This document shows, one piece after another, positions 820 to 63,639 of a stretch of 64,000 bases of DNA. The notes under the pieces are model-generated. The model searched no databases. It had not been told where the DNA came from and saw nothing but the letters and a program-made list of their open reading frames with translations. The stretch's first letter is position 1. Each line of letters opens with the position of its first letter. Made by a program: the position numbers and the translations under genes. The stretch comes from Candidatus Zixiibacteriota bacterium (GTDB taxonomy: Bacteria; Zixibacteria; MSB-5A5; RBG-16-43-9), in contig JAUYBY010000028.1 of NCBI GenBank assembly GCA_030692925.1, positions 4,351 to 68,350 on the forward strand, written 5' to 3'.

Positions 820-905
820 TGTCATTCTGAGGGAGCGAAGCGACCGAAGAATCTGTCGATTTTGACCTTGAGGTAGATTCTTCGCCCTTCGGGCTCAGAA
901 TGACA
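820..905. repeat. palindromic repeat tgtcattctgaggga...ctcagaatgaca, copy 1, in the 5' leader of the FG-GAP gene
   Basis: Imperfect palindrome with 12-bp termini tgtcattctgag/ctcagaatgaca and an inner gaagaatct/agattcttc pair. A second copy lies at 8985-9079. Confidence 0.65.
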
Positions 906-2657
906 AAGAGACCACAACCCTATAACCCCCAGGAGGGCAAAATGCTTTTGAGATTTAATCGTCATTGCGAGGAGTCCATTTGGACGACGAAGCAATCCAT
1001 TTACTTCAACACCAAGCCCCTATTTATCCTTTTTCTCTTTTTCCTTTTATCCTTCACCCCATTCAACAACCTTCATTCCCAACCCTCTCAACCCAACTCC
1101 GACTCCATCCCCTTCGCCCCAGCAGTTAACTATGGAGTTGGAAATTTCCCCTACCATGTTTTTTGTGCTGATTTAGATGGAGATGGCTACCTCGACTTAG
1201 CAGTGGCAACTCAAGTAAATAATAGCGTCTCCGTTTTGAAAAACAATGGTGATGGAACATTTCAGCCTAAAATTGACTATGATGCTGGTTACTGTCCTTG
1301 GTCGGTATACTGTGCGGATTTGGATGGTGACTCAGATTTAGACTTAGTGTTAGACAATTATAATGATAGCATTTCTGTATTAAAGAATAATGGAGATGGG
1401 ACTTTCCAGGCCAGAGTCGCTTATCAGGTAGGTGACCATCCTGAGTGTGTTTTCTGCGGAGATGTGGATGGAGATGGTGACCAAGACTTGGCTATAGCAA
1501 ATTCATTTAGCAATAACATCTCCATATTGATGAACAATGGTAACGGAACTTTTCAATCTGCAATTAACTATCCAGCAGGTTCTGGACCTCGCTCTGTTTG
1601 TTGTTCGGATTTAGATGGTGACCTTGATCTTGACCTTGCAGTTGCAAATTTGAATAGCAACAACGTTTCCATCTTAATGAACAATGGCAATGGGACTTTT
1701 CAATCTCCTGTCAATTATCCAGCAGGGCCAGAATCTCATGCAGTTTTTTGTGCAGATCTTGATGGGGATTTGGATAAAGACATAGCAGTTGCAAATTGGT
1801 CTGGAGGGAATGTTTCCATCTTAGAAAATAATGGAGATGGAACTTTTCAAAACCCGGTTAACTATACAGTAGGAAGTGCTCCCTCTTCTGTTTACTCTGC
1901 AGATCTGGATGGAGACGGGGATCTGGATTTAGCTGTGTCAAATTTCAATAGCGGAAACGTCTCAATTTTACAGAACAATGGAGATGGGACCTTTGGGAAT
2001 TTAATTAACTATGTTGCAGGTACGTACCCCAATACCGTTTTTTGTGCAGATTTAGATAGAGATGGTGATCTGGATATGGCTGTAGCGAATGTGGGCAGCG
2101 ACAATGTTTCCATCTTAATTAACTTGAGCAATTCCGCTATGCCAAGTTCTTATAGCTTAGTATCCCCCACAGATGTTGATTCTGTCAAATCACCAGTTAC
2201 TTTCGCCTGGCACAAATCTATCGACATTGACCCAAATGACACTGTCCGATATGATTTATATCTCAGCCGTTCTATCAACTTTAACTCAGATACCATCGTT
2301 TATCATGGTCTTCTTGATACAACCTTTAGAGATAGCACTGATTTTAAAGATAGTACCGATCTCAAGCTCTGGTATTGGAAAGTAAAAGCCTATGACAAAT
2401 GGGGAGCAATAAGATGGTCTGAACAACAGGATTGGAGTTTTTATGTTTATCTGTGCGGAGATGGGAATGGAGATGGACAGGTGAATATGCGGGACGTATT
2501 GTATCTGGTCAAGTATATCTTCGCAGGCGGGCCTGCTCCAAAGCCTTTAGCAGCAGGAGATGTCAATTGTGATGGTCAGGTTAATTTTAAAGATGTGCTC
2601 TATTTAATCAGATATATTTTTACAGGAGGACCCAAGCCCTGTCAAAATTGTCCGTAA
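900..2657 (+). CDS. secreted FG-GAP (VCBS-like) repeat protein with an FN3-like region and a C-terminal dockerin type I-like double repeat
   Basis: About 8 repeats of FCADLDGDGDLDLAVAN..NVSIL.NNGDGTFQ. The C-terminus reads GDGNGDGQVNMRDVLYLVKYIF...GDVNCDGQVNFKDVLYLIRYIF. The hydrophobic signal-like segment starts near residue 40, and the annotated ATG lies inside the repeat element, so the true start is probably downstream. Confidence 0.7.
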   Translation: MTKRPQPYNPQEGKMLLRFNRHCEESIWTTKQSIYFNTKPLFILFLFFLLSFTPFNNLHSQPSQPNSDSIPFAPAVNYGVGNFPYHVFCADLDGDGYLDLAVATQVNNSVSVLKNNGDGTFQPKIDYDAGYCPWSVYCADLDGDSDLDLVLDNYNDSISVLKNNGDGTFQARVAYQVGDHPECVFCGDVDGDGDQDLAIANSFSNNISILMNNGNGTFQSAINYPAGSGPRSVCCSDLDGDLDLDLAVANLNSNNVSILMNNGNGTFQSPVNYPAGPESHAVFCADLDGDLDKDIAVANWSGGNVSILENNGDGTFQNPVNYTVGSAPSSVYSADLDGDGDLDLAVSNFNSGNVSILQNNGDGTFGNLINYVAGTYPNTVFCADLDRDGDLDMAVANVGSDNVSILINLSNSAMPSSYSLVSPTDVDSVKSPVTFAWHKSIDIDPNDTVRYDLYLSRSINFNSDTIVYHGLLDTTFRDSTDFKDSTDLKLWYWKVKAYDKWGAIRWSEQQDWSFYVYLCGDGNGDGQVNMRDVLYLVKYIFAGGPAPKPLAAGDVNCDGQVNFKDVLYLIRYIFTGGPKPCQNCP

Positions 2658-4876: not shown

Positions 4877-5519
4877 AAAAAAGGTAGATTAAACCTCCTA
4901 CTACCACAGTAACCACTGCTGGTTCTACATATCTGCCCCAAGTGCTCTGTGGTATCTCAGGGCATAAGAATGGATATTGTCTGTTATTCAGGGACAAAAG
5001 CTCTTCTTTCCTTAAAAGATCAGAATTCTTTCTCTCCCCTCTTTTACTCCATAAGATTTTCCCATCCGGATCGCTCAAGCTAAAGGATATTGCTACTTGG
5101 GATTCCCTTTTTACCCAGCTTTTTCCAAAGAGTTTTTTCCTTTTGATCTCCGGATATTCAAGGTTCAGTTTTATAATCCTGTAAGACAGCACCGGCGAGG
5201 AGCTCTCCTGTCCCTCTTTTTTTCCTACGCCGACCGGTCCCGTTTTGGGAAGGAACGAGACTATCTCCTCCCTCACTATCCAGACAGACGGATTTTCCCC
5301 TTCCTCTTTTACCCAGACCATCTGAGAATCGATAGGGGCATCTTTTAGACAGTCCTCTAATACGTCTTTTATAGTCTGCCTCAAAAAAGCCTCATTCGTA
5401 GGAGGTATAATCTTTTCTTGAGCAAAGCTCTTTGAGGAAAAAAGAATGGAGACTAAAAACAAGACTTTAATCCAGAGAGAAGTTCTTTTCGATTTGTACT
5501 TCAAAACCCGATCAGCCAT
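4863..5519 (-). CDS. hypothetical exported protein with a C-terminal TM anchor
   Basis: N-terminal signal peptide and C-terminal hydrophobic segment VVTVVVGGLIYLFF. No recognisable domain. Confidence 0.4.
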   Translation of the reverse strand: MADRVLKYKSKRTSLWIKVLFLVSILFSSKSFAQEKIIPPTNEAFLRQTIKDVLEDCLKDAPIDSQMVWVKEEGENPSVWIVREEIVSFLPKTGPVGVGKKEGQESSSPVLSYRIIKLNLEYPEIKRKKLFGKSWVKRESQVAISFSLSDPDGKILWSKRGERKNSDLLRKEELLSLNNRQYPFLCPEIPQSTWGRYVEPAVVTVVVGGLIYLFFANR

Positions 5520-7273: not shown

Positions 7274-7563
7274 ACAGTATTCTTTAACTCACTTTCTGAA
7301 ACAGGATATACGGAGATTAATTCGCCCGTTTCCAGCTCTAAATCATACAGCAGGTCACATATCTTATCTATTTCTTTTCCCTTGTTCACCTTTCCTTTGA
7401 GAATAACCGCAATATCTATATCCGATTCTTTATTTGCTCTGCCTTTAGCAAAAGAGCCATAAAGAAAAACATTCAACAGGCGATCACCATAAACTCGCTC
7501 CAGAAGTTTTTTTATCTGAGGTAAAAAAGGTTTTATCTCCTTCCTTGATCTAACAGTTTTCAT
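7228..7563 (-). CDS. nucleotidyltransferase (MNT/MntA-type antitoxin)
   Basis: LYGSFAKGRANKESDIDIAVIL, i.e. the GS...D.D pol-beta NTase signature. Confidence 0.8.
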   Translation of the reverse strand: MKTVRSRKEIKPFLPQIKKLLERVYGDRLLNVFLYGSFAKGRANKESDIDIAVILKGKVNKGKEIDKICDLLYDLELETGELISVYPVSESELKNTVWPLYRHIKREGIRV

Positions 7564-12265: not shown

Positions 12266-13753
12266 TTAGCAAGGAGGTGGAGATCCACCTTTTAATAGAT
12301 AATTTATAAGATAAACCACATCAGAAATGGATACTTTCCCGTCACAGTTGGCATCTCCTGATCCTGAAGGATTCGAAGCAGGTCCATACCTAAAAAGATA
12401 ATTGATTAGGTAAACTATATCTGAAACGTCCCGTTGTTTATCACCATTCGTATCTCCGCGCATAAAAAAATTAATATATTTAATAGTAGCATAGTCACCC
12501 AACCCTATTATACCATAACTGCAACCAGTTACATAGACATTACCATAATTATCTGTTGTAATGGAATAAGATTTGTCATCCAAGTTTCCAGGCCCGTTGT
12601 ATCTCCTCACTCCAATTTCATTTCCATACGAGTCATACTTTATTGTGGCATAGTCATAGTTGGCGTTTGGCCAAATCCAATTTTGGGAACTATATCCAGT
12701 CACATAAACATTACCAGAATCATCTGCTGCCATAGCTAAAGCCACATCCCAGTAATTTCCCGGTCCATTATATCTTCTTACCCATGCAGTATCTCCATTA
12801 GTATAATACTTTACAGTAGCGTAGTCGTGCGATGTATGGTCACCCCAACTATAGCCAGTCACATAGATATTATTGAAACCGTCTATGGCTATAGCAGTAG
12901 CATAATCATAATAATAAGGATTCCCCGTACCGTTATATCTTCTTACCCAGGCAGTATCACCATTCGGATAATACTTTATAGTAATATAGTCATCCTGACC
13001 TCCGGTCACACACACATTGTCAGAACCGTCGAGAGCTAGAGCAACACCACCCCAGGACCTGACCCATAACTCTTCTCCTTCTGCATTGTATTTTATCGTC
13101 CCAGTTGTCCCACTCACATAAACATTGTTAGAGTCATCAACGGCTATTGCGAACGCATCGTCTTCGGAGTAGTCTGGACCGTTGTATCTGCGCAACCAAG
13201 CAGTATCTCCATTGGAATGATACTTTATAGTAGCATAGTCATAGCCTGTGGTATCGCCCATACTGGCTCCTGTAACATAAGCGTTACCATAACCATCCAC
13301 GGTAATAGCAAGAGCTTTATCCTGTAAGTTCCCCGGTCCATTATATTTTCTGACCCAGGCTGTGTCTCCATTAGGATAATACTTTATGGTAAGGTAATCC
13401 CAGTATGTCGCATTGCCCCAACTCACTCCAGTCACGAAGACGTTACCATATCCATCTATAGCAATAGCATAAGCTTCCTCCCAGTCACATGATGGTCCAT
13501 TGTATCTTCTCACCCAAGCAGTATCTCCATTAGGATAATACTTTATCGTAACACAATCATAGTTTGTTCCGATGCCGTAACTTCTCCCAGTCGTATAAAC
13601 ATTACCAGAATCATCTACGACTATTGCATTAGCTGCATCATAGTCATTCGCTTGCCCATTAAATCTTCTCACCCAAGCAGTATCCAAAGACTGAGTAAAA
13701 GCAGGCAACGTCAAAAATAAAATCAAGAAAAACATCAAGAGGATTCTAACCAA
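12266..13753 (-). CDS. secreted SBBP beta-propeller repeat protein with a C-terminal dockerin type I-like double repeat
   Basis: About 9 repeats of YDYATIKYYPNGDTAWVRRYNGPGN...VTG. The C-terminus reads GDTNGDKQRDVSDIVYLINYLF..GDANCDGKVSISDVVYLINYLL. Confidence 0.7.
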   Translation of the reverse strand: MVRILLMFFLILFLTLPAFTQSLDTAWVRRFNGQANDYDAANAIVVDDSGNVYTTGRSYGIGTNYDCVTIKYYPNGDTAWVRRYNGPSCDWEEAYAIAIDGYGNVFVTGVSWGNATYWDYLTIKYYPNGDTAWVRKYNGPGNLQDKALAITVDGYGNAYVTGASMGDTTGYDYATIKYHSNGDTAWLRRYNGPDYSEDDAFAIAVDDSNNVYVSGTTGTIKYNAEGEELWVRSWGGVALALDGSDNVCVTGGQDDYITIKYYPNGDTAWVRRYNGTGNPYYYDYATAIAIDGFNNIYVTGYSWGDHTSHDYATVKYYTNGDTAWVRRYNGPGNYWDVALAMAADDSGNVYVTGYSSQNWIWPNANYDYATIKYDSYGNEIGVRRYNGPGNLDDKSYSITTDNYGNVYVTGCSYGIIGLGDYATIKYINFFMRGDTNGDKQRDVSDIVYLINYLFRYGPASNPSGSGDANCDGKVSISDVVYLINYLLKGGSPPPC

Positions 13754-52893: not shown

Positions 52894-53259
52894 ATGGAAT
52901 GCTTCTTTTACGGAACGATAAGAGAACAAGAGGTAAAAGAAAGATTCAATGGAGTGCTGTCCTTCGCCATACCTGATTTAGGATTCATTTTCCGGGCGCA
53001 GTTCAAAGGGGCCCCGGCTGAATGTGAATATGCCAGCCTCTTAGCCCTTCTGGAATTTATCGAGCAGAACCCGAACCTGTTTAAGAGCAAAAGGATTGAG
53101 ATTTACGGTGACAGTTTCACCGTGGTCCATCAGGTCAATATGCAGATGCATTGTACCAAAGACTTAGAGCCTTATCGCAATATGGCCCTGGGATATAAAA
53201 GGAAAATCCCTTACGTGCTGAACTGGATCCCCAAAAATGACAATCCGGCCATAATTTAA
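52894..53259 (+). CDS. small RNase H-like domain protein (RNase HI / RVT_3-like fold)
   Basis: ECEYASLLALLEFI, IEIYGDSFTVVHQVN and a C-terminal WIPKNDNPAI align with the RNase H catalytic E, D and D blocks. The first catalytic-Asp block reads FFYGT instead of TDGS. Confidence 0.5.
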   Translation: MECFFYGTIREQEVKERFNGVLSFAIPDLGFIFRAQFKGAPAECEYASLLALLEFIEQNPNLFKSKRIEIYGDSFTVVHQVNMQMHCTKDLEPYRNMALGYKRKIPYVLNWIPKNDNPAII

Positions 53260-54603: not shown

Positions 54604-54683
54604 GGTTTAGGAAACTCACTTTTAAGCAGCAAATTGAATTTGGAAAAACAGGGGAATATTATTTATTCTGATTTGTATTAATA

Positions 54684-55280
54684 ATGATGGAAGTCCGGAT
54701 GGTGGAGAAAAGATTCAAAACCGGAACTGAGGAGCCTGAGGGCAAGATCATTGCCAGGGCGAAAAAGGGGGATATCTATTCCTTTGAAAGGCTGGTAGAG
54801 AAATACCAGAAGAAGATCTATTATCTGGCTTTGAGGATGACCAGATCGCATGAGGCAGCAGATGATCTGGCTCAGGAATCTTTCATCAAGGCATTTTATT
54901 CCCTTAAATCTTTTAAAGAAGGTTACAGCTTCTGTGCCTGGGTTTATAAGATCTGTATGAACCTGACCATAAATTACCTTAAAAGACAGAAATTCACCAT
55001 CTCAGAAAGCCAGCTACCCCAGGGCTCCTTGGAGCTTGTAGAGGATACGGGGAAAGCCGATGCCTCAGAACAGTTAGTCAGGGATGAATTGACCAGAAAA
55101 ATAGAAAGCGAGATAGATCACCTGCCAGCTGAATTCAGGGCGGTCTTTATCCTCAAAACGTATGAGGAATTAAGCTATGAGGAGATTGCTAATGCTCTGA
55201 AAATCTCAAAGGGGACCGTGATGTCCCGGCTCTTCCGGGCAAGAGCGAGACTACAGAAGAGTTTAAAAGGTTATCTATGA
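54684..55280 (+). CDS. ECF (sigma-70 family group 4) RNA polymerase sigma factor
   Basis: Region 2 (YQKKIYYLALRMTRSHEAADDLAQESFIKAF) and region 4 (LSYEEIANALKISKGTVMSRLFRARARL). Confidence 0.85.
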   Translation: MMEVRMVEKRFKTGTEEPEGKIIARAKKGDIYSFERLVEKYQKKIYYLALRMTRSHEAADDLAQESFIKAFYSLKSFKEGYSFCAWVYKICMNLTINYLKRQKFTISESQLPQGSLELVEDTGKADASEQLVRDELTRKIESEIDHLPAEFRAVFILKTYEELSYEEIANALKISKGTVMSRLFRARARLQKSLKGYL

Positions 55281-55286
55281 AAGAAG

Positions 55287-56486
55287 GTGGGAAAATTGAA
55301 GTGTGAGGATTTTAACAAATTCGTCTATCTTTATTTTGACGGGGAATTAGATGCGGGAAAATCAAAAGAGATGGAGGAGCATCTTTTGACCTGTCAAAAC
55401 TGCGCGGCAAAACTGCAGGAGCTTAAAAAGCTTGAAGAAAGTGCTAAGAGTATAAGAATGCCAGAACTTTCCCCTGATTACTGGAAAACCTTTGCTGAAA
55501 GGGTAAGGAATGAGATTATCCTAAGAAGGAGAAAATCTATCTGGGCAAGGCTCAAATCCGGATGGGAATCTTTTTTCTTTTACTCGCCTGTAAAATTGAG
55601 AATCGCCGCCGGGATTGCCTCAGTCCTTTTGGTTTTTATTGTAGGCAAGCTCTACTGGGATTACAAAGGAAAAGAGCTGGAGAGAATCAGGTCTGAAAGG
55701 ATGGAGAAAGTGCTAATCCCTCAAACCCAGCAAAAAGTTGAAGCATTAGCTCCAGCAGTCAAAGAATCGCTCCAGGTCGCAGAACAGAAGGAAGAAACCA
55801 CTTTCACGGGCTCAAAAGTGTCTCCAGTTGAAGAAAAAATAGCCCAAGTCCCCACCCCTTCAGAGTCAGCGATTTCATCCATTGGAGGAAAAGGAGAAGA
55901 AAAAGCAAAACAAGCCGGTGAAGGCATCAGTTCAGAGCACAAGAAAGCTATCACGGTCACCGCAGAAAGACCAGTAATCGAGAAAGGAGTCACAGCAAAT
56001 TTAAGGACTGTTACTCAAGCAGAAATGGCTATGAAGCCTCCAAGCTTACCAGAAACCATCCTTTATGTTCAGAAGTCGCCAGAAGATAAACGCATCAGGA
56101 CAACAAGTGGCATTCCGGTCAGCCCGCGAATAAGCATTGGAGATAAATCACAACCGATTGAAATCTTAAGATTTTACAGGCTGGATAATAATTGGGTACA
56201 TGCCTTAACCGAAAAAGATACACTGGTGGAAGCAGATACTTTAAAAAAGGTAATTTCTTGCTGGAAAGAATTTTTTGATAAGAAGCCTGTACCAGAATGG
56301 GCTCCGGAAGGTTTTTCACAGATTAAAATTGGCTATCAACTGCTTTTCCTGAAGACCAGGGACCAGTCGGCGCTTCAAGAAGGAATAGAACTCTTAGATA
56401 AATGTAAAACGTCTGTAACTGACCAGAAAATCAAAGAGGAACTCAGTCAGAAAATTGCCGAATTAGAGACTTTGAAGAAAAAATAA
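55287..56486 (+). CDS. anti-sigma factor (zf-HC2 cytoplasmic domain, single TM, 270-aa extracytoplasmic domain)
   Basis: YFDGELD...HLLTCQNCAAKL zinc-finger anti-sigma motif. TM IAAGIASVLLVFIVGKLYW. Starts 7 nt after the sigma gene. Confidence 0.75.
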   Translation: MGKLKCEDFNKFVYLYFDGELDAGKSKEMEEHLLTCQNCAAKLQELKKLEESAKSIRMPELSPDYWKTFAERVRNEIILRRRKSIWARLKSGWESFFFYSPVKLRIAAGIASVLLVFIVGKLYWDYKGKELERIRSERMEKVLIPQTQQKVEALAPAVKESLQVAEQKEETTFTGSKVSPVEEKIAQVPTPSESAISSIGGKGEEKAKQAGEGISSEHKKAITVTAERPVIEKGVTANLRTVTQAEMAMKPPSLPETILYVQKSPEDKRIRTTSGIPVSPRISIGDKSQPIEILRFYRLDNNWVHALTEKDTLVEADTLKKVISCWKEFFDKKPVPEWAPEGFSQIKIGYQLLFLKTRDQSALQEGIELLDKCKTSVTDQKIKEELSQKIAELETLKKK

Positions 56487-56553
56487 AATTTTCGGGAATA
56501 ATTCCTTCCTTGATTTGTAGAAAAAGTAGAAAAACTTTAACCAGGAGGGAATT

Positions 56554-58704
56554 ATGAAGAAATTAAGTTTTGCCTTAGGTCTCTTCCTCATCCTCTACTC
56601 CAAGACCTTAGCGGATGGGTTCATCGTCCCGGTTCCCCGCCATCCAGATGAGCCGCTTCCGCCTTACCTCTCGATCAAATATCATCACGTAGAAATTAAA
56701 ATCGATAACCAGGTGGCTCAGACTACAGTTGACCAGGTTTTTAGAAACGATTATCCACGGGATTTAGAAGGAACCTACATATTTCCTCTGCCTGAGGATG
56801 CCTCTATTTCTAAATTTTCAATGTTCGTGGGTGGTGAAGAGCTAAAAGGTGAGATTCTGGACAGGAATAGAGCCAGAGCAATCTACGAGGAGATAGTTCG
56901 CCGTAGAAAAGACCCGGCTCTTTTGGAATATTATAATCAGGGGATGTTCAGGGCTCGGGTCTATCCCATACCTGCACACGGCGAGACCAGGATAAAATTG
57001 GGATATTCTCAGGTCTTGAAATCTGAGAACAACCTCTGCGAATACAAGTATTCTCTTTCCACTGAGAAATTCTCTCAGACTCCATTGGAAAACGTAAGAA
57101 TCGAACTGGTCATCAATTCAGACATTCCGATTAAAAATATCTATTCTCCTACTCAGGATATAAAGATTGAAAGGGAGACTGACCATAGAATAAGGGTCTC
57201 CTATTTTGAGGAGAACGCCAGACCGAATAAGGATTTTGTTCTCTATTATTCCTTATCAGATAAAGACGTGGGGTTCAATCTTTTAAGTTATCAGGATAAA
57301 AAAGAGGGAAACTTCTTTATGGCTCTTTTCTCCCCCAAAATCCAGAGGGCTGATAGGTTCATCAAAAAAAGAGTAATTTTTATTCTGGATACTTCAGGCA
57401 GTATGCAGGGAAAGAAGATGGAACAAGCAAAGAATGCCTTGGTCTTCTGCTTGAACAGCCTGAATCCAGGGGACAGCTTTAATCTGATCGATTTCGATGA
57501 CCAGATCAAGCCTTTCAGTGAAAGACTTCTCCCCACATCCAGGGAAAATATTAATTCCGGAATAAAATTCGTTCAGAATTGCGAAGCAGATGGAGGAACA
57601 GACATTAATTCCGCCCTTTTAGAGGGTCTGAAAAACTTAAACCCTGAAGACAAAACTTCATATATCGTATTTCTGACTGATGGCTTGCCCACTGTAGGAC
57701 TAACTGACATCAAGAGGATACTTGAGAACGTGAAGGGAAAAAACATCTCCAACCGGATTTTCGTCTTCGGAGTGGGCTTTGATGTGAACACTCATTTTCT
57801 GGACAGACTGGCTCAGGAAAATCATGCTACTTCCGATTATGTGACTCCGGATGAGGACATTGAAGTCAAAGTATCCAATTTCTTTAAGAAGATCTCTAAT
57901 CCGATATTATCCGACTTAAGCCTGAAGTTCCCAGGTATCAAAACCTTTGAAATCTATCCCAAAGAACTGCCTGATCTTTTCAGCGGCTCGCAGATACTCA
58001 TTTTAGGAAAATATGAAGGAGAAGGAAGCAGCTCAGCTACTCTGAGCGGATATAGTGGTGAAGAAAAGCAGACCTATTCCTATCGAGTAAATTTTTCACC
58101 CGAGGGAAAAAACAGTTTCATCCCCCGTCTCTGGGCTACAAGAAGGATCGGATATTTAGTTGATCAGATGAGACTTTATGGCCAAAGCACAGAATTAATC
58201 GACGAAATTGTCCGTCTCTCCAAGAGATATGGTATAATAACCCAATATACTTCTTTTCTTGTAGATGCAGATCACCCGATAACTGTCACAGCTGAGAGGC
58301 CAATAATCGAGAAAGGCGTAACCGCTAACCTTCGAACAGTGACTGGCTCAGGCGCAGTTTATCAATCCAAGAATTTACTTGGTCTGCAGGACGCCTTGAA
58401 AGCTCCAGAGGCGTTCATTGACCCTTCAGGTAAAGAGAAGAAAATATCCGGCATAGTCCAGGCAGGGAACAAGACCTTCTTCAAAGAAGGAAACTTCTGG
58501 GTGGATAGTCAATATGACAGCACTCTTAAGATTATAAAAATTCAAAGATTCAGCCCGGCCTATTTCGAGTTAGCAAAAAGGTTCCCGGAATTTGAGAAGT
58601 ATCTTGCCTTAGGTGATAGGGTCATCTTTGTACATCAGAATAAAATGGTTGAGATCTCAGACCAGGGTGAGGAAAAGATCGAGGCCCTCAACCAACTACA
58701 TTAA
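56554..58704 (+). CDS. secreted VIT (vault inter-alpha-trypsin) and von Willebrand factor A domain protein
   Basis: Signal peptide. VIT block (ISKFSMFVGGEELKGEILDRNRARAIYEEIVRRRKDPALLEY...ARVYPIPAHGETRI). vWA with MIDAS (DTSGSM...TDG). Confidence 0.8.
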   Translation: MKKLSFALGLFLILYSKTLADGFIVPVPRHPDEPLPPYLSIKYHHVEIKIDNQVAQTTVDQVFRNDYPRDLEGTYIFPLPEDASISKFSMFVGGEELKGEILDRNRARAIYEEIVRRRKDPALLEYYNQGMFRARVYPIPAHGETRIKLGYSQVLKSENNLCEYKYSLSTEKFSQTPLENVRIELVINSDIPIKNIYSPTQDIKIERETDHRIRVSYFEENARPNKDFVLYYSLSDKDVGFNLLSYQDKKEGNFFMALFSPKIQRADRFIKKRVIFILDTSGSMQGKKMEQAKNALVFCLNSLNPGDSFNLIDFDDQIKPFSERLLPTSRENINSGIKFVQNCEADGGTDINSALLEGLKNLNPEDKTSYIVFLTDGLPTVGLTDIKRILENVKGKNISNRIFVFGVGFDVNTHFLDRLAQENHATSDYVTPDEDIEVKVSNFFKKISNPILSDLSLKFPGIKTFEIYPKELPDLFSGSQILILGKYEGEGSSSATLSGYSGEEKQTYSYRVNFSPEGKNSFIPRLWATRRIGYLVDQMRLYGQSTELIDEIVRLSKRYGIITQYTSFLVDADHPITVTAERPIIEKGVTANLRTVTGSGAVYQSKNLLGLQDALKAPEAFIDPSGKEKKISGIVQAGNKTFFKEGNFWVDSQYDSTLKIIKIQRFSPAYFELAKRFPEFEKYLALGDRVIFVHQNKMVEISDQGEEKIEALNQLH

Positions 58705-58903: not shown

Positions 58904-59644
58904 ATGAAATGGCAGGTATTACTTGTAATCCTCATGTTTCTTGTGTTTAGCTGCGGGAAAACTGAGGAAAAGGACTCTTCTATGGAGAATAATGCTCAGC
59001 CAGATTCCCTGAGGATGCAGGAGAAAAGGGACTGGATGGTAAAAGCCCAGATTGAAAGCCGGGGGGTCAAAGACTCTATGGTTTTAAAAGCCATGAGAAA
59101 AGTCCCCAGACATCTTTTCGTCCCTAAGAGCTATCAGGAAGAAGCATATGCAGATGAGCCTTTGCCTATCGGAGAGGGGCAGACTATTTCCCAGCCTTAC
59201 ATAGTTGCCCTGATGACCGAGCTTTTAGGCTTAAAAGGAGGAGAAAAGGTTTTGGAAATAGGAACCGGCTCTGGTTATCAGGCAGCTATCTTGGCTGAAA
59301 TCGCTAAAGAGGTTTACAGTATTGAGATTATCTGCCCCCTGGCTGAAAGGGCTGAAAGCAGTTTGAAGGAATTAGGATACAAGAATGTCACAGTCAAGTG
59401 CGGGGATGGTTACCAGGGATGGAAAGAACATTCCCCATTTGACGGGATAATCGTAACTGCCGCTCCTGATCATATCCCTCAGCCCTTAGTCGACCAGTTG
59501 AAGATTGGAGGAAGATTGGTTATCCCGGTGGGAGAACTTTTTCAGGAGCTTATCCTGGTTACCAAAACTGAAAAAGGTATTAAAAAGGAAAACGTCATCC
59601 CGGTCCGGTTTGTGCCTATGACCGGGGAGGCAGAAAAGAAATGA
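58904..59644 (+). CDS. pcm: protein-L-isoaspartate O-methyltransferase with an N-terminal lipoprotein signal peptide
   Basis: [35 protein letters not shown] motif, preceded by [19 protein letters not shown] (lipobox). Confidence 0.8.
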
Positions 59645-59691: not shown

Positions 59692-60057
59692 ATGGACAGA
59701 AAACTTTATCGTTCCACAAAAAATTCGATGATCGCCGGGGTTTGCGGAGGTATAGGAGAATATCTGAATGTCGATCCGACCATAGTCCGCTTGTTTGCAG
59801 TCCTCTTGATCTTCGCTGAAGGGATAGGGATAATCCTTTATCTTATCGCCTGGATAATCATGCCCCGGGCAGAGGTAGTTGAGGGTGAGACCGTGAGCCA
59901 GAAAGAGTCTGCGTCAAGAAAATATTTACCAGGCTTAATTCTGATCGGGGTAGGCATCCTGTTTTTGCTTAATAATTTAATCCCCTGGTTCCACTTTCAT
60001 TTCATCTGGCCGGTGATCCTTATAATCCTTGGGCTTTTTCTTTTAATCCGGGCTTAA
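59692..60057 (+). CDS. pspC: PspC-domain membrane protein
   Basis: LYRSTKNSMIAGVCGGIGEYLNVDPTIVRLFAVLL PspC signature, plus TM helices. Confidence 0.75.
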   Translation: MDRKLYRSTKNSMIAGVCGGIGEYLNVDPTIVRLFAVLLIFAEGIGIILYLIAWIIMPRAEVVEGETVSQKESASRKYLPGLILIGVGILFLLNNLIPWFHFHFIWPVILIILGLFLLIRA

Positions 60058-60085: not shown

Positions 60086-61000
60086 ATGACAGTTTCCAGA
60101 ATAAGGAATGGGGTCATCTTGCTTTCAGTCGGCATAGTTTTACTTTTGAACAACCTGGATTACGTGGACTGGTCAGTCTGGGTTTCCATTTTATCTCTAT
60201 GGCCGGTTCTGCTAATTGCCATCGGCATAGAGAAGATCTTTGCCAAAACCTCTTTGAACTTCTTAGCATACCTTTCACCAATTTTACTCCTCATTGCGAT
60301 TCTGGGTCCAGCTTATTACTATTATCACCACGAGACAGACAACGTTACCTACGATGGTAAGATCTTTCGCTGGGAGAAGGAAATGTCCCCTCCTGTCAAA
60401 AGAGGATTCGCGACCTTCGATTTCAAGGCTGGCACCCTGAAAACCAACGCCAGTCAGGATAAGCTGGTTCTGGCCGAGTTGGATTACTGGAGAAAAGAGC
60501 CTCTTTGTCTTTACAACTACTCTGATAAGGATAGCATCGTCAGGCTGGAGATAAAGGACCGGGACCATTTCTGGAGAGGCTGGTTTAAGCCCGGGATCAA
60601 GAACAGGCACCAATGGGACGTCTTTCTTTCTGATAAAATCCCCTGGGAATTAGCTATCGAGAATGCGGTTATGAGCGGAAACCTTGACTTCTCCGCACTT
60701 ACCGTGGAGAATCTGTCGGTGGATTCCGATGCCAGTACTCTTAAGATAAAATTAGGGAATAAAGCAAAGAATTTAAAAGCCAGGATAGACTCAGACGCTT
60801 CCACCCTTGAGCTTCTCCTGCCTAAAGATGCGGGTCTGAAAATAGAAAACCGTTCTTCCTTAAGCTCCACCAATTTTAAGGATATTTCCATCAACCACGA
60901 AAAGAAAAGGTACTGGACCTCCAACTATGATTCTGCCCCTTCAAAGATAGAGATACTTCTTCACGGAGGCATCTCTACACTCAAGGTAGTAGGCTATTAA
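60086..61000 (+). CDS. PspC-associated membrane protein with a beta-rich C-terminal domain (DUF4097/LiaF-like)
   Basis: 3 N-terminal TM helices, then a 200-aa soluble domain. The gene context with pspC is typical. Confidence 0.35.
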   Translation: MTVSRIRNGVILLSVGIVLLLNNLDYVDWSVWVSILSLWPVLLIAIGIEKIFAKTSLNFLAYLSPILLLIAILGPAYYYYHHETDNVTYDGKIFRWEKEMSPPVKRGFATFDFKAGTLKTNASQDKLVLAELDYWRKEPLCLYNYSDKDSIVRLEIKDRDHFWRGWFKPGIKNRHQWDVFLSDKIPWELAIENAVMSGNLDFSALTVENLSVDSDASTLKIKLGNKAKNLKARIDSDASTLELLLPKDAGLKIENRSSLSSTNFKDISINHEKKRYWTSNYDSAPSKIEILLHGGISTLKVVGY

Positions 61001-62135: not shown

Positions 62136-62831
62136 ATGTTCCTAAGAGAAATAATCAACTGGATTTCATTTCAGCTTCATATCCTGAAAAATGTCCTTAT
62201 TTTCCTTGCCCCAGCAATACCGATGACCATCAAGCTAACCTTAGTGGCTTTTGCTTTAGCTTTGATTTTAGGACTCCTGATAGGCTTAGCCAGATTATCG
62301 CAGAGAGGCTTGATAAAAGTTTTTTCCAAAATCTATGTGGATGTGTTGAGAGGGATCCCGCTTTTAGTGCAGATTTTCTTCATCTATTTCGGCCTGGGCA
62401 AAATCCTGAATTTAGATCGGTTTTTAGCTGGGGTTATCGCCATTGCAGTATGTTATTCCGCCTATTTAGCGGAGATAATAAGAGCTGGCATCCAGGCAAT
62501 TCACAAGGGTCAGTACCAGGCAGCCCTATCTTTGGGAATGACCCCTTATCAGACTATGAGGTATGTGATTCTGCCGCAGTCCTTAAGGATTATAGTCCCA
62601 CCTGTGGCAAACGAGTTCATAGCATCTTTGAAAGATAGCTCCTTAGTTTCTATTATTGGATTGAGAGAGCTGACCCGTGCAGGCAGGGAATATTACTCCC
62701 AGTATTTTGTAGATTTCCAGACCTGGCTTGTGGTCGGCATAATTTATTTGATAATGACCTTAAGCTTATCTAGATTGGTTGCTTATCTGGAGAAAAAATA
62801 CAGAGTGCATGGTTTTGGAATACCCCACTGA
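62136..62831 (+). CDS. polar amino acid ABC transporter permease (HisMQ family)
   Basis: EAA-like loop and a 5-TM His/Glu/Gln permease pattern (LRGIPLLVQIFFIYFGL). Confidence 0.8.
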   Translation: MFLREIINWISFQLHILKNVLIFLAPAIPMTIKLTLVAFALALILGLLIGLARLSQRGLIKVFSKIYVDVLRGIPLLVQIFFIYFGLGKILNLDRFLAGVIAIAVCYSAYLAEIIRAGIQAIHKGQYQAALSLGMTPYQTMRYVILPQSLRIIVPPVANEFIASLKDSSLVSIIGLRELTRAGREYYSQYFVDFQTWLVVGIIYLIMTLSLSRLVAYLEKKYRVHGFGIPH

Positions 62832-62910: not shown

Positions 62911-63639
62911 ATGATTATTCAGACCAGAGAAATCAGCAAAAGATTCGGCGAAATCATTGCCCTGGACGGGGTCAATTTTGAGATTGAAGCAGGTGAGGTT
63001 GTGGTGATAATCGGGCCCTCAGGTTCTGGCAAAAGCACCCTGCTTCGCTGCCTGAATGGTTTGGAGAAAACAGATTCAGGTGAAATCATAATCGATGGGA
63101 TAAAATTAGACAAGGATAAGAGTAGTATCCACAAGGTCAGAGAAGAGCTGGGGATGGTCTTTCAGGAATTCAACCTTTTCCCTCATCTTTCGGTCTTAGG
63201 AAATCTTTGTTTAGCCCAGGAGGCCGTGCGTAAAAGGAGCAAGCCGGATGCCGAGAAAATCTCTCTGGAGCTTTTAAAAAAAGTGGGGCTTTTAGACAAA
63301 AAAGATTCCTTTCCTAATCAGCTTTCAGGCGGGCAACAGCAGAGAGTAGCCATTGCCCGAGCCTTGGCTATGAATCCCAGGATAATGCTATTCGATGAGC
63401 CGACCTCAGCTTTAGACCCTGAGATGATAGGCGAGGTCTTGGAAGTCATGAAGACTTTGGCAAAAGAAGGGATGACCATGCTGGTGGTAACCCACGAGAT
63501 CGGATTTGCACGGGAAGTAGCTAAAAGGATAATCTTTATGGACCAGGGCAAAATCATCGAAGAAGGAAAAACAGAAGATATCCTGAACTCCCCCCAAAAC
63601 CCTCGCACCATAGCATTTTTGAGTAAAGTTTTGAAATAG
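62911..63639 (+). CDS. polar amino acid ABC transporter ATP-binding protein
   Basis: Walker [10 protein letters not shown], signature [15 protein letters not shown], Walker [12 protein letters not shown]. Confidence 0.9.

Follow-up and report, generated by a model that had tools for sequence, protein, structure and literature searches.

The window analysed here, a 64,000-nucleotide stretch of DNA from an uncultured Zixibacteria genome, carries a gene unit made up of an ECF sigma factor, an anti-sigma factor and a secreted VIT-vWA protein, with only 7 nt between the sigma stop codon and the anti-sigma start. The features are listed below with the basis for each; module A is the 22-residue peptide found in both the anti-sigma and the VIT-vWA proteins.

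54652..54677, + strand: putative ECF-type promoter motif upstream of the sigma gene, GGGAATATTATTTATTCTGATTTGTA (conservation)
54684..55280, + strand: ECF sigma factor, 198 aa (Pfam and NCBIfam)
55287..56486, + strand: anti-sigma factor, 399 aa (Pfam zf-HC2, 4.5e-7; AlphaFold2 model)
55587..55655, + strand: predicted transmembrane helix of the anti-sigma factor, about aa 101-123 (hydrophobic VKLRIAAGIASVLLVFIVGKLYW; helical in the model)
55713..56156, + strand: hypervariable disordered periplasmic linker of the anti-sigma factor, aa 143-290 (pLDDT; identity to related locus L029)
55950..56015, + strand: module A copy in the anti-sigma factor, aa 222-243, ITVTAERPVIEKGVTANLRTVT (ORF translation and codon comparison)
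56494..56519, + strand: second putative ECF-type promoter motif, upstream of the VIT-vWA gene, GGGAATAATTCCTTCCTTGATTTGTA (conservation)
56554..58704, + strand: secreted VIT-vWA protein, 716 aa, ITIH heavy-chain-like (Pfam VIT 7e-31, VWA 8e-17)
58240..58404, + strand: variable, disordered linker that joins the ITIH-like core of the VIT-vWA protein to a small C-terminal domain, aa 563-617 (pLDDT)
58279..58344, + strand: module A copy in the VIT-vWA protein, aa 576-597, ITVTAERPIIEKGVTANLRTVT (ORF translation and codon comparison)

The sigma factor matched Pfam Sigma70_r2 (1.8e-16), Sigma70_r4_2 (2.9e-15) and Sigma70_ECF (7.3e-7), and its score against NCBIfam sigma70-ECF (107 bits) exceeded the cutoff of 42.9. 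The anti-sigma factor consists of an N-terminal zf-HC2 anti-sigma domain, whose residues H32/C36/C39 are invariant in 29 homologues, one transmembrane helix, in which V116-Y123 are invariant in the homologue alignment, the disordered periplasmic linker, and a C-terminal helical (TPR-like) domain that AlphaFold2 models confidently as a four-helix repeat. The weak Foldseek neighbours of this last domain were TPR peptide-binding domains, none of them significant (best E=0.036). The VIT-vWA protein begins with a signal-peptide-like sequence, MKKLSFALGLFLILYSKTLADG, and its best Foldseek match was human inter-alpha-inhibitor heavy chain 1 (6FPY; E=6.7e-39, 587 columns); the MIDAS residues D279/S281/S283 are invariant among homologues. 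Its best NCBIfam match, TIGR03788 (sortase-target VIT-vWA), scored 335.6 bits without reaching the cutoff of 551.65, and the alignment stopped at profile position 574 of 629, at the start of the variable linker.

About 85 related Zixibacteria loci were compared, and the gene order sigma, anti-sigma, VIT-vWA was kept at every one whose sequence extends that far. No conserved neighbour that could serve as a partner (a protease, TonB or other) was found across these loci. Upstream of the sigma gene, the motif GGGAATAWT-N~10-TGATTTGTA is conserved in nearly all of them, and GGGAATAWT...TTTGTA precedes both the sigma and the VIT-vWA genes, in the window as well as phylum-wide. The window holds three matches to the motif (0.55 expected), a number reached in 0 of 100 shuffles. 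Between the anti-sigma and VIT-vWA genes the exact pattern was present in about 40 related loci, distant ones included, while upstream of VIT-vWA in the window and its closest relatives one base differs (TGTAG, not TGTAT). From this conservation we infer that both copies act as promoters, and the cognate ECF sigma factor appears to act directly on the VIT-vWA gene.

The original prediction was that the anti-sigma and VIT-vWA proteins share a near-identical 22-residue peptide under protein-level selection. ORF translation and codon comparison bear this out, as 21 of the 22 residues are identical, with a single V/I change. Of the two spans first proposed, 58279-58344 matches the VIT-vWA copy, but 55947-56015 takes in the preceding Ala codon, and a Pro assigned to the second copy is encoded at 58276-58278, immediately outside its span. 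The nucleotide differences are mostly synonymous, as had been said, but number 18 in 66 nt instead of about 17; every codon change is synonymous except GTA/ATA. In the codon-level alignment and selection test that had been proposed, the Nei-Gojobori method gave S=18 and N=48, with pS=0.89 (saturated) and pN=0.04. Independent back-translations of the peptide with local codon usage lay 15.7 +/- 2.4 nt apart, close to the 18 observed, so that synonymous sites are saturated and no DNA-level similarity is left between the two copies.

The match far exceeds chance. BLASTP between the two proteins gave a peptide-driven E value of 3e-10, and the ungapped score of the peptide match was 104, as against 27 +/- 4 in shuffles. 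In line with the earlier statement that nothing else in the two proteins is alike, profile-profile comparison of their periplasmic parts aligned the peptide alone (E=1.2e-4), and family members without it had no similarity between the two proteins (E=0.14-0.53). The peptide is neither repetitive nor low in complexity, and its pattern did not occur beyond the two copies in six-frame translations of the window, nor, in 661 kb of related DNA, in any other ORF with a length of 100 aa or more; within the DNA searched, unrelated proteins did not carry it. Among the copies of module A, 'P.IEKGVT..LRT' is near-absolutely conserved in both proteins with saturated synonymous sites; strong purifying selection at the protein level holds module A in both genes. 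Module A is, with high confidence, a functional shared linear motif, and no published description of such an arrangement was found.

The nucleotide copies of module A group according to the gene that carries them. Of 66 positions, 1-17 differ among the anti-sigma copies, 8-18 among the VIT-vWA copies and 11-25 between the two groups. Most copies also have gene-specific codons for N-L-R-T, typically AAT TTA AGG ACT in the anti-sigma gene and AAC CTT CGA ACA in the closest VIT-vWA copies. Each copy has therefore been inherited within its own gene, without recent conversion, and the claim that no recent DNA duplication is involved stands.

Both copies lie in disordered, variable segments. In the AlphaFold2 models, pLDDT falls below 50 at aa 143-250 and 259-291 of the anti-sigma factor and at aa 563-617 of the VIT-vWA protein, the neighbouring domains being confident in each case; in neither model is the peptide docked anywhere in cis. 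Compared with L029, the locus is about 97% identical in DNA, whereas the anti-sigma linker is 30-67% identical, module A being replaced by module B. Compared with another locus, L025, identity is 34-53% at 55700-55899 and 74-94% across the peptide, module A forming a conserved island in the linkers of anti-sigma proteins that are about 60% identical overall. Among the VIT-vWA genes of sister lineages with different linker types, identity drops to 33-40% in the 60-nt bin of the module, with flanks mostly at 80-90% or higher. Here the residues HP plus module A fill a 24-residue slot between the conserved 'YTSFLVDAD' and 'GSGAV', which in most family members reads 'YRLA..EL....'.

Besides A, the set of modules includes B1, '(I/L)L(K/R)TQVGFV', and B2, 'LH(I/L)(R/K)(G/A)G(R/K)AGEV', and each of the three is found in either protein. 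A and B have little in common beyond 'LRT'. By sequence reading, all three look like alternating-polarity strands around Gly-containing turns. Sharing was scored for B2 between the anti-sigma factor of L029 and the VIT-vWA protein of L002 (score 48; 0 of 500 shuffles as high) and for B1 (score 44; 1 of 500), and again in a distant clade, between 'EILAPQVGFV' of the L010 anti-sigma factor and 'EVLAPQVGFV' of the L019 VIT-vWA protein (score 48; 0 of 500). Module sharing between the two proteins thus recurs, judging from these alignments. In the VIT-vWA tree the linker types are interleaved at the tips, and the identity profiles indicate that close relatives exchange modules as sharply bounded cassettes. 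Each position of the VIT-vWA form of B2 has a counterpart in the ancestral linker ('DLHLRAGKAGEVLKMDT' and 'DLRIQAEEALRAPLKKET', respectively), and part of the similarity may therefore stem from change in place and not from transfer.

The expectation that homologous triplets would share the peptide was not generally borne out, its presence in both proteins being limited to part of one clade. Written as (anti-sigma, VIT-vWA), the combinations (A,A), (A,B), (B,A), (A,ancestral) and (B,ancestral) occur, and (B,B) was not seen among the related loci. Canonical A in the anti-sigma factor accompanies an ancestral VIT-vWA linker in L004, L005 and L032; A is paired with a VIT-vWA B in L002 and L087; and the reverse arrangement is present in L029 and L089. 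No association between the types of the two proteins was seen in the best-sampled subclade. These mixed genomes, together with those carrying an ancestral VIT-vWA linker, indicate that a matched pair is not required and that module A has a role in the anti-sigma factor independent of the VIT-vWA copy. A regulatory link of the VIT-vWA protein to the sigma/anti-sigma pair, as proposed, is plausible in view of the VIT-vWA gene's own copy of the promoter motif. Of the mechanisms first suggested, competition, mimicry or a common protease is still the most reasonable reading, on indirect evidence.

The best explanation overall, which we put forward tentatively and at somewhat less than even confidence, is that module A is one linear motif for a common periplasmic partner, most plausibly a processing protease, for which the VIT-vWA protein would be a competing substrate. 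That both copies serve a single partner is the part we are moderately inclined to accept; a protease in that role, with feedback arising through competition, is possible but doubtful. Under this proposal: module A would be displayed in the disordered periplasmic linkers of the membrane anti-sigma factor and of the secreted VIT-vWA protein, which would form one regulatory unit; both linkers would present docking or cleavage sites for a partner that binds extended beta-strand or hairpin peptides; and the likeliest such partner would be a candidate protease that initiates regulated proteolysis of the anti-sigma factor and also processes the VIT-vWA linker. The sigma-driven, module-bearing VIT-vWA protein could then act as a competing substrate or decoy. 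When plentiful and unprocessed, it would spare the anti-sigma factor and the system would shut down; when depleted, it would free the protease to cleave the anti-sigma factor and release sigma. Where the VIT-vWA linker is ancestral, such feedback might be weaker or work differently. If the proposal is true, an output protein could feed back on its own sensor through a shared docking or cleavage site. In eukaryotic ITIH precursors the cut falls directly behind the heavy-chain core, and the LPXTG signal of TIGR03788 proteins is in the tail; by analogy with these processing regions, the VIT-vWA linker may be cleaved as well. Against a single partner stands the point that it must accept both A and B, and against the explanation as a whole that (A,ancestral), (A,B), (B,A) and (B,ancestral) all exist, a matched pair being unnecessary.

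Instead of a third protein, the receptor for the module could be a folded domain of the pair itself, either the vWA domain, through its MIDAS face, or the anti-sigma factor's TPR-like C-terminal domain. The VIT-vWA protein would then bind the anti-sigma linker and protect or expose it, as RseB does RseA, its own linker copy being a cis pseudo-ligand that is auto-inhibitory until the real target is met. We consider this unlikely, even though several observations fit. A MIDAS face typically coordinates a ligand Glu or Asp, and the invariant MIDAS residues are matched by nearly invariant acidic residues in module A (TAE, IEK); the four-helix repeat has its weak structural neighbours among TPR peptide-binding domains; the VIT-vWA gene is apparently a sigma target, as CpxP-type feedback inhibitors of envelope sensors are; and the anti-sigma factor keeps A where the VIT-vWA protein is without it, as a receptor in a folded VIT-vWA domain would allow. 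However, the same anti-sigma C-terminal allele occurs with A-type and B-type linkers (P0004/P0011 versus P0015), so this domain does not co-vary with the module, its Foldseek matches fell short of significance, and the models dock the module in cis on neither protein.

The two copies might also not be coupled at all. The modules would be interchangeable linker elements under external diversifying or balancing selection (phage, bacteriocin binding, foreign proteases), or generic beta-hairpin spacers, which neighbouring genes share as a pool through occasional old transfers, each copy having its own job. The interleaving of linker types in very close relatives with sharp drops in identity is the pattern of recombining alleles, genomes with 93-99% identity in the sigma, VIT-vWA and neighbouring genes have anti-sigma factors that are 64% identical, and every type combination but (B,B) exists without visible association. 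We nevertheless regard this as rather improbable: each of the three modules is common to these two proteins and, within the reach of the searches, to no others; without a common function it is difficult to see why a sensor and its apparent target should share modules repeatedly; and the near-absolute conservation of 'P.IEKGVT..LRT' with saturated synonymous sites implies the same constraint in both proteins.

Quite improbable, in our judgement, is that module A and the following anti-sigma residues imitate the TonB box and first plug strand found N-terminally in a TonB-dependent transporter, so that TonB would bind, and perhaps pull, the anti-sigma linker while the VIT-vWA protein competes for TonB. 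With an HMM built from the TonB-box-to-plug region of E. coli BtuB, FhuA, FepA, CirA and FecA, the anti-sigma segment 'AITVTAERPVIEKGVTANLRTVTQAEMAMKPP' aligned to model positions 2-34 with 9.1 bits (0 of 2000 composition-preserving shuffles as high), and over 609 real ORFs (202,308 residues) the best 12 domain matches all fell in this region of the anti-sigma homologues. In some homologues a 'TITVTA' agrees with 6 of the 7 residues of 'DTITVTA', the FhuA TonB box, and the disordered location is like that of TonB boxes. But the hypothesis was picked after sight of the sequence, scores were very low in full-length context (3-5 bits), and modules B1 and B2 were not significant against the HMM. 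Pfam Plug, phmmer against all PDB chains and tblastn against 7.3 Gb of plasmids each gave nothing at E<=10, and no TonB-dependent transporter was found in the window or the related loci. A TonB box requires about 7 residues, not 22, and the VIT-vWA copies vary most in their TonB-box-like part (ITLAPV, INVTAD, ITVTPE), with 'RPIIEKGVT' nearly invariant. The resemblance is thus weak.

Practically no weight can be given to chance, to low complexity, to an artefact of assembly or to recent duplication of the DNA, all of them refuted by the BLASTP E value, the non-repetitive composition, the codon comparison, the per-gene clustering and the saturated pS, while copies that differ at 18 of 66 nt cannot have been confused by assembly and the same pair recurs in independent ENA, JGI, NCBI and Logan assemblies.

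Parts of this arrangement have counterparts in known systems. ITIH and TIGR03788 proteins, which are processed in the segment directly after the core, share with the VIT-vWA protein a VIT + vWA(MIDAS) core, and module A sits right after that core; here, however, a small globular domain forms the tail, the VIT-vWA protein showed neither an LPXTG nor a DPHFII motif, and those families are not known to be linked to ECF sigma/anti-sigma pairs. Colicins carry, in their disordered translocation domains, epitopes (TonB box, TolB box) that mimic epitopes of host partners. Such short conserved motifs in disorder, acting by beta-strand augmentation and in competition with an endogenous ligand, recall the weakly TonB-box-like module A, but both of its carriers are endogenous and belong to one operon-like unit, and its TonB-box resemblance failed standard searches. 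The agr and comQXPA pherotype loci, with their specificity-type cassette polymorphism, likewise have discrete divergent alleles of short segments in adjacent signalling genes, interleaved and with sharp identity drops; there adjacent genes co-vary strictly, whereas here the types in the two genes have no visible association.

The RsgI anti-sigma factors found in Clostridium thermocellum have extracellular modules similar to those of the cellulosomal proteins under their control. Sensor and regulated products thus have sequence modules in common there too, but these are whole folded carbohydrate-binding or glycoside hydrolase domains with an external ligand, not a 22-residue linear motif in disordered linkers. 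A paper related to RsgI is PMC10328401. In the ECF289 type, the anti-sigma factor itself is fused to a vWA/DUF3520 region (Casas-Pastor et al. 2021, PMC7826278). Extracytoplasmic sensing in an ECF pathway involves a vWA domain in that case as well, although the vWA protein here is separate, secreted and of the VIT/ITIH type, and is tied to the anti-sigma factor by promoter, synteny and shared motif only.

The RseA/RseB/DegS type of regulated proteolysis, which acts on zf-HC2 and related single-pass anti-sigma factors, resembles this locus in having an ECF sigma factor with a single-pass anti-sigma factor (cytoplasmic anti-sigma domain, periplasmic sensing part), a periplasmic linear peptide as the likely control point, and an accessory periplasmic protein encoded with the pair. 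It differs in that no homology to RseB, to the RseA periplasmic part or to DegS is present here, and in that the accessory role falls to an ITIH-like VIT-vWA protein, whose gene has a sigma-type promoter motif of its own and which contains a second copy of the putative control peptide; regulated proteolysis of the RseA/RseB/DegS type is here a proposal only. CpxP is a feedback inhibitor of CpxA and a member of the regulon that CpxA controls; it is not known to share sequence with the sensor. The VIT-vWA protein, as an apparent periplasmic output, would similarly be a candidate to act back on its sensor, but here output and sensor carry the same linear motif, suggesting competition over simple binding.

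The shared 22-residue peptide, referred to here as module A, lies in two of the three genes of a compact unit, whose features in the window are as follows.

54652-54677, upstream of the sigma gene: candidate ECF-type promoter motif, GGGAATAWT-N~10-TGATTTGTA, found by aligning upstream regions and present in nearly all loci
54684-55280, plus strand: ECF sigma factor (Pfam Sigma70_r2, Sigma70_r4_2 and Sigma70_ECF)
55287-56486, plus strand: zf-HC2 anti-sigma factor of 399 aa (Pfam zf-HC2)
56494-56519, between the anti-sigma and VIT-vWA genes: second copy of the candidate promoter motif, present in about 40 related loci, distant ones included
56554-58704, plus strand: VIT-vWA protein of 716 aa with a signal-peptide-like N-terminus (Pfam VIT and VWA)

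The best database matches assign the window to candidate division Zixibacteria. The anti-sigma peptide is ITVTAERPVIEKGVTANLRTVT (nt 55950-56015, aa 222-243) and the VIT-vWA peptide is ITVTAERPIIEKGVTANLRTVT (nt 58279-58344, aa 576-597). They are identical at 21 of 22 residues, and the flanks on both sides are unrelated. A BLASTP comparison of the two proteins gave E=3e-10, due to the peptide segment, bearing out the original observation that the two share a peptide. Its details needed small corrections, as each span had been placed one codon off and the 66-nt copies differ at 18 positions rather than about 17; the differences are indeed mostly synonymous, all differing codons being so except GTA/ATA. 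Nei-Gojobori counts for the two copies (pS=0.89, pN=0.04) agree with the proposed selection at the protein level. Independent back-translations of the peptide using local codon usage lie 15.7 +/- 2.4 nt apart, which matches the difference between the two copies, and therefore no DNA trace of a common origin is left. When the periplasmic parts were compared profile against profile, the peptide alone was aligned (E=1.2e-4), consistent with the earlier statement that nothing else in the two proteins is alike. Homology at the domain level, linking the periplasmic part of the anti-sigma factor to the tail of the VIT-vWA protein, was considered, as the BLASTP alignment stretches to 'FYRLDNNWV'/'FFKEGNFWV', but it was rejected because the same profile comparison found nothing in family members lacking the peptide (E=0.14-0.53).

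Judged by their sequences, the sigma and anti-sigma factors are ordinary members of their families. The former scores 107 bits against NCBIfam TIGR02937 (cutoff 42.9) and has sigma-70 regions 2 and 4 only, in about 200 aa, which places it among the ECF factors. The anti-sigma gene starts 7 nt past the sigma stop codon, and its product scores 30.3 bits against Pfam zf-HC2 (cutoff 22.2) with invariant H-x3-C-x2-C residues H32, C36 and C39. One transmembrane helix is predicted (about aa 101-123, hydrophobic, with an invariant core), together with an extracytoplasmic C-terminal part. Pfam found no FecR domain in the anti-sigma factor, and no TonB-dependent transporter is present in the window or the related loci, so the pair does not qualify as a FecR-type cell-surface-signalling system. 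The third protein (VIT, 107 bits; VWA, 62 bits; DxSxS MIDAS residues D279/S281/S283 invariant) is ITIH-like and belongs to the VIT-vWA superfamily, and it scores below the cutoff of TIGR03788, the marine proteobacterial sortase target family (335.6 bits against 551.65). The TIGR03788 match stops at profile position 574 of 629, precisely at the onset of the variable linker. No LPXTG was seen in the VIT-vWA translation, whose C-terminus is a soluble domain, and a DPHFII-type ITIH cleavage site is absent from the protein, the post-core segment being DADHPITVTAERP in the window and DADYRLA... in most relatives. Membership in a known anti-phage defence system was rejected, as none of the three proteins matched any PADLOC defence model.

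Gene order (orf121, holA, sigma, anti-sigma, VIT-vWA) is kept in 75 related loci as far as the DNA of each locus extends, and it holds down to about 30% anti-sigma identity. A relaxed pattern of the promoter motif occurs three times in the window where 0.55 occurrences are expected, and 0 of 100 shuffles reached three. It is from one line of evidence, the motif common to the regions upstream of both genes, that we infer the VIT-vWA gene to be a probable direct target of the sigma factor. Ahead of the sigma gene, the motif may represent an autoregulated promoter with -35/-10-like elements. The third match, GGGAATATTACTCCCAGTATTTTGTA (62686-62711, plus strand), lies inside the 3' end of the ORF at 62136-62831, which with its neighbours resembles an amino-acid ABC transporter operon; this match is about 200 nt upstream of the ORF at 62911-63639, and it could mark a further regulon member or be due to chance. 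In a distant clade, the VIT-vWA leaders carry short tandem repeats that lie after the promoter motif and before the ribosome-binding site, for example GCAGTAGGCAGT... and (C)CTTGAAC(N) units; these are found in the related loci L008 (about 5230-5330) and L014 (about 7280-7340), similarly in L010, L011, L012 and L043, and their copy number differs among loci.

Upstream of holA, the 121-aa ORF (52894-53259, plus strand) is conserved in 46 related loci and has a weak RNase HI-like NCBIfam match (E=1.3e-4). Downstream of the VIT-vWA gene, a protein-L-isoaspartate O-methyltransferase gene (PCMT; 58904-59644, plus strand) begins with a lipoprotein-type signal, so this repair enzyme seems to be exported. 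It is followed on the same strand by the envelope-stress genes for a PspC-domain protein (59692-60057) and a LiaF-like/toast-rack protein (60086-61000). All three genes come after the VIT-vWA gene in the window's clade, and at least some of this arrangement recurs in L039 and L040. FG-GAP repeat and SBBP beta-propeller proteins with terminal type I dockerin domains are encoded at 900-2657 (plus strand) and 12266-13753 (minus strand), and L089 likewise has a beta-helix protein with a dockerin next to the locus. A conserved neighbour gene encoding the peptide's partner was sought and rejected, since the downstream genes vary by clade and include no protease or TonB/ExbBD.

AlphaFold2 monomer models were built from alignments of 29 anti-sigma and 39 VIT-vWA sequences. 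The anti-sigma model has the cytoplasmic anti-sigma domain followed by a helix that holds the hydrophobic segment (about aa 101-123). The pLDDT is below 50 at aa 143-250, a stretch that includes the peptide, and at aa 259-291; a C-terminal domain consisting of a short beta-hairpin and four helices has a pLDDT of about 90, and its structural neighbours are TPR-like repeats, none of them significant. In the VIT-vWA model the core is confident, with human inter-alpha-inhibitor heavy chain 1 (ITIH1, 6FPY) as the best PDB match (Foldseek E=6.7e-39, 587 aligned columns), and it is followed by a low-confidence segment at aa 563-617 including the peptide and by a small C-terminal domain (aa 620-716). 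As the models put the peptide in low-confidence linkers of both proteins, it is a linear motif in flexible periplasmic linkers rather than part of a shared fold. Anti-sigma homologues in L016 (6001-7524), L021 and L054 have the C-terminal helical domain twice, giving about 516 aa (L016 and L054) against about 400.

The peptide is not a low-complexity segment, and there is no sign of its wide spread either in the ORFs searched or in a 30-residue phmmer query. Patterns for A and for two further modules, B1 '(I/L)L(K/R)TQVGFV' and B2 'LH(I/L)(R/K)(G/A)G(R/K)AGEV', match no further ORF (100 aa or longer) in the window or in 661 kb of related DNA. Querying 1.84 billion representative proteins with a 30-residue window around A returned a single match at E<=0.001, the anti-sigma homologue P0006 (E=1e-6); as this search listed no VIT-vWA protein carrying the 22-mer, it is blind to bare 22-mer matches, including those in a possible third family, and a third carrier of the motif may exist in the same genome.

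VIT-vWA orthologues vary over about 24 residues, a slot bounded by the conserved 'YTSFL(V/I)DAD' and 'G(S/A)GAV', which in most family members holds 'YRLAAHELAPQ...', the type called ancestral here. Part of the window's clade has module A in exactly that slot, after two residues (HP in the window). In the anti-sigma orthologues of this clade, A is a conserved island within a fast-evolving linker; in some its place is taken by the conserved block 'GIL(K/R)TQVGFVTKE..DSLHI(K/R)GGRAGEV', made up of B1 plus B2, and in others A is decayed. The VIT-vWA linkers of other genomes carry B2 and B1 in the reverse order, 'DLHLRAGKAGEVLKMDT...L(Q/L)KTQVGFV'. Comparing anti-sigma and VIT-vWA copies from different genomes, B2 scored 48 (0 of 500 shuffles reached this) and B1 scored 44 (1 of 500), and in a distant clade 'EILAPQVGFV' of the L010 anti-sigma factor and 'EVLAPQVGFV' of the L019 VIT-vWA protein scored 48 (0 of 500). 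These significant matches across genomes indicate that module sharing between the two proteins is recurrent and phylum-wide. Eight of the loci (L002, L004, L006, L010, L013, L014, L016 and L017) are labelled in their records as Terriglobales, Ignavibacteria or 'uncultured bacterium' despite Zixibacteria-specific synteny, which suggests mislabelling of bins or taxonomy.

Within single genomes, the module types of the two proteins are combined as follows.

Pairing of anti-sigma and VIT-vWA types in the window, related loci (L) and homologous proteins (P). Types were read from the DNA; the pairings P0004/P0047, P0031/P0059, P0020/P0048 and P0029/P0061 are inferred from contigs of equal length.
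Anti-sigma A, VIT-vWA A: window, L001/L023, L003, L025, P0004/P0047, P0031/P0059
Anti-sigma A, VIT-vWA B: L002/L028, L087
Anti-sigma B, VIT-vWA A: L029/L081-L083, L089
Anti-sigma A (partly decayed in L033), VIT-vWA ancestral: L004, L005, L032, L033
Anti-sigma B, VIT-vWA ancestral: L088
Anti-sigma decayed A, VIT-vWA A, B2-like or ancestral: P0020/P0048, P0029/P0061, L006

The combination of B with B was not seen among the genomes typed. An expectation that homologous loci would all share a matched peptide failed in this survey, matched peptides being optional. As canonical A is kept in the anti-sigma factor where the VIT-vWA protein is without it, the role of the motif in the anti-sigma factor is independent of the VIT-vWA copy. 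Where the anti-sigma A is lost or diverged, the VIT-vWA copy is prone to drift (…GVTAALRTET, ITLAPVRP…), in a sample too small and too related to establish co-variation. Linker-against-linker comparison within genomes was clearly significant only in those with A in both proteins. A family-wide cognate match was rejected, as the other genomes gave at best 1-7 of 100 shuffles reaching the score, for example 'VGAGAEERAK'/'VGAGAVNRAK' in L014, a weak hint. Distant-clade anti-sigma linkers (L014, L056 and others) carry a nearly invariant '(T/I/V/A)GAG(V/A)(E/D)', like the invariant 'VGAGAV' just past the VIT-vWA variable slot; the ungapped score of 41, reached by 2-4 of 100 shuffles, is a weak hint of linker mimicry in members without A.

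Copies of A cluster by gene: over the 66 nt, anti-sigma copies differ from each other by 1-17 nt, VIT-vWA copies by 8-18 nt, and copies of different genes by 11-25 nt. In most copies the N-L-R-T codons are gene-specific. Both observations argue that each copy was inherited inside its own gene with no recent conversion. Short-patch gene conversion was considered for L001 and rejected, as the excess of clustered differences toward anti-sigma codons (4 of 7) is not significant. The linkers as a whole behave as exchangeable cassettes. Between the window and L029, DNA identity is about 97% over holA, sigma, VIT-vWA and PCMT, and 30-67% over 55700-56199, where A is exchanged for B; at the protein level the anti-sigma factors are 64% identical and their neighbours 93-99%. 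VIT-vWA genes with different linker types likewise show 33-40% identity in the 60-nt bin of the module and mostly 80-90% or higher in the flanks, and the linker types are interleaved at the tips of the VIT-vWA core tree.

Module A is a linear motif in the disordered linkers of a sensor and its apparent target, under equally strong constraint in both and one of a few interchangeable modules. Both copies are probably recognized by a single periplasmic partner. Judging from sequence, all three modules resemble amphipathic strand-turn-strand peptides of the type bound by beta-strand augmentation. A protease is the favoured candidate for the partner. Release of single-pass anti-sigma factors typically proceeds by regulated proteolysis beginning in the periplasmic part, ITIH precursors are cleaved in the post-core linker, and that linker also holds the signal of TIGR03788 sortase-target proteins. 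The typical mode of anti-sigma release, the processing of VIT-vWA relatives in the post-core linker and the end of the TIGR03788 match where the variable linker begins all argue for this choice. The VIT-vWA protein would then be a competing substrate of the protease, exerting negative feedback on its own synthesis. It is possible, if on the whole doubtful, that substrate mimicry lets the ECF pathway sense its own output: the VIT-vWA protein, under control of the sigma factor, and the anti-sigma factor would show the same interchangeable docking modules to a single enzyme or motor of the periplasm, the rate at which the latter is destroyed would be set by how much of the former there is or by its state of processing, and A, B1/B2 and the ancestral linker would be recombining, pherotype-like specificity types.

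Functional coupling, as originally proposed, is plausible and backed by the common promoter motif, but across the related loci matched peptides are optional, and the modules recombine and are polymorphic. Alternatively, the module might bind directly to the vWA MIDAS face or to the TPR-like domain of the anti-sigma factor, the VIT-vWA copy being a pseudo-ligand in cis. Another alternative is that the two proteins are not coupled and that the modules are under diversifying pressure from outside.

Mimicry of a TonB box, judged against the consensus x-T-x-x-V-T-A followed by the first plug strand at the usual spacing, is a minor and improbable rival. The segment AITVTAERPVIEKGVTANLRTVTQAEMAMKPP recalls the N-termini of transporters such as BtuB and CirA, as read from E. 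coli K-12. An HMM of the TonB-box-to-plug region of five E. coli transporters (BtuB, FhuA, FepA, CirA and FecA) aligned the anti-sigma segment to positions 2-34 with 9.1 bits, unreached in 2000 shuffles, a tiny score from a test chosen after the sequence had been seen; the best twelve hits among 609 real ORFs were all this anti-sigma segment. However, no match at E<=10 was found in Pfam (Plug), all PDB chains or 7.3 Gb of plasmids (tblastn), B1 and B2 were not significant against the HMM, and in the VIT-vWA copies the box-like 'ITVTA' is the least conserved part, with 'RPIIEKGVT' nearly invariant. The idea that B1/B2 correspond to a transporter plug, suggested by 'LxxxPGV...IRG' motifs, was rejected, as about 400-530 of 2000 shuffles reached the observed score against the E. 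coli HMM. In one variant of the substrate-mimicry reading, A would be a true TonB box, with TonB engaging the anti-sigma factor directly and without a TonB-dependent transducer.

To our knowledge, signal perception by ECF anti-sigma factors with unannotated periplasmic regions is unexplained in the majority of the numerous ECF groups. In this case the sequence indicates a control element, namely a motif of 22 residues within a disordered linker, and as the pathway's own apparent target bears the same motif, the VIT-vWA protein is a candidate input. If the competition model is true, the system would offer a simple and transferable way of keeping a secreted protein under homeostatic control, and an example of motif mimicry between sensor and output. 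Although Zixibacteria are uncultured, the system, with three genes and two candidate promoters, is compact enough for a possible reconstruction in a model bacterium, and naturally occurring variants of the A, B and ancestral types are supplied by the cassette polymorphism.

This is an unusual pattern, clearly delimited and open to testing, and it comes from an uncultured phylum. Literature searches returned no report of a motif common to an anti-sigma factor and a VIT-vWA protein. What we rate as new is that the accessory secreted protein of an ECF sigma/anti-sigma module bears the anti-sigma factor's own linear motif. The ECF classification paper describes ECF289 anti-sigma factors fused to vWA/DUF3520, and the present arrangement is not described there (PMC7826278). 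The nearest systems in logic are regulon-encoded feedback inhibitors of the CpxP type, RseB-type protection, epitope mimicry by colicins, module sharing by RsgI and pherotype cassettes, each of which differs from the arrangement found here.
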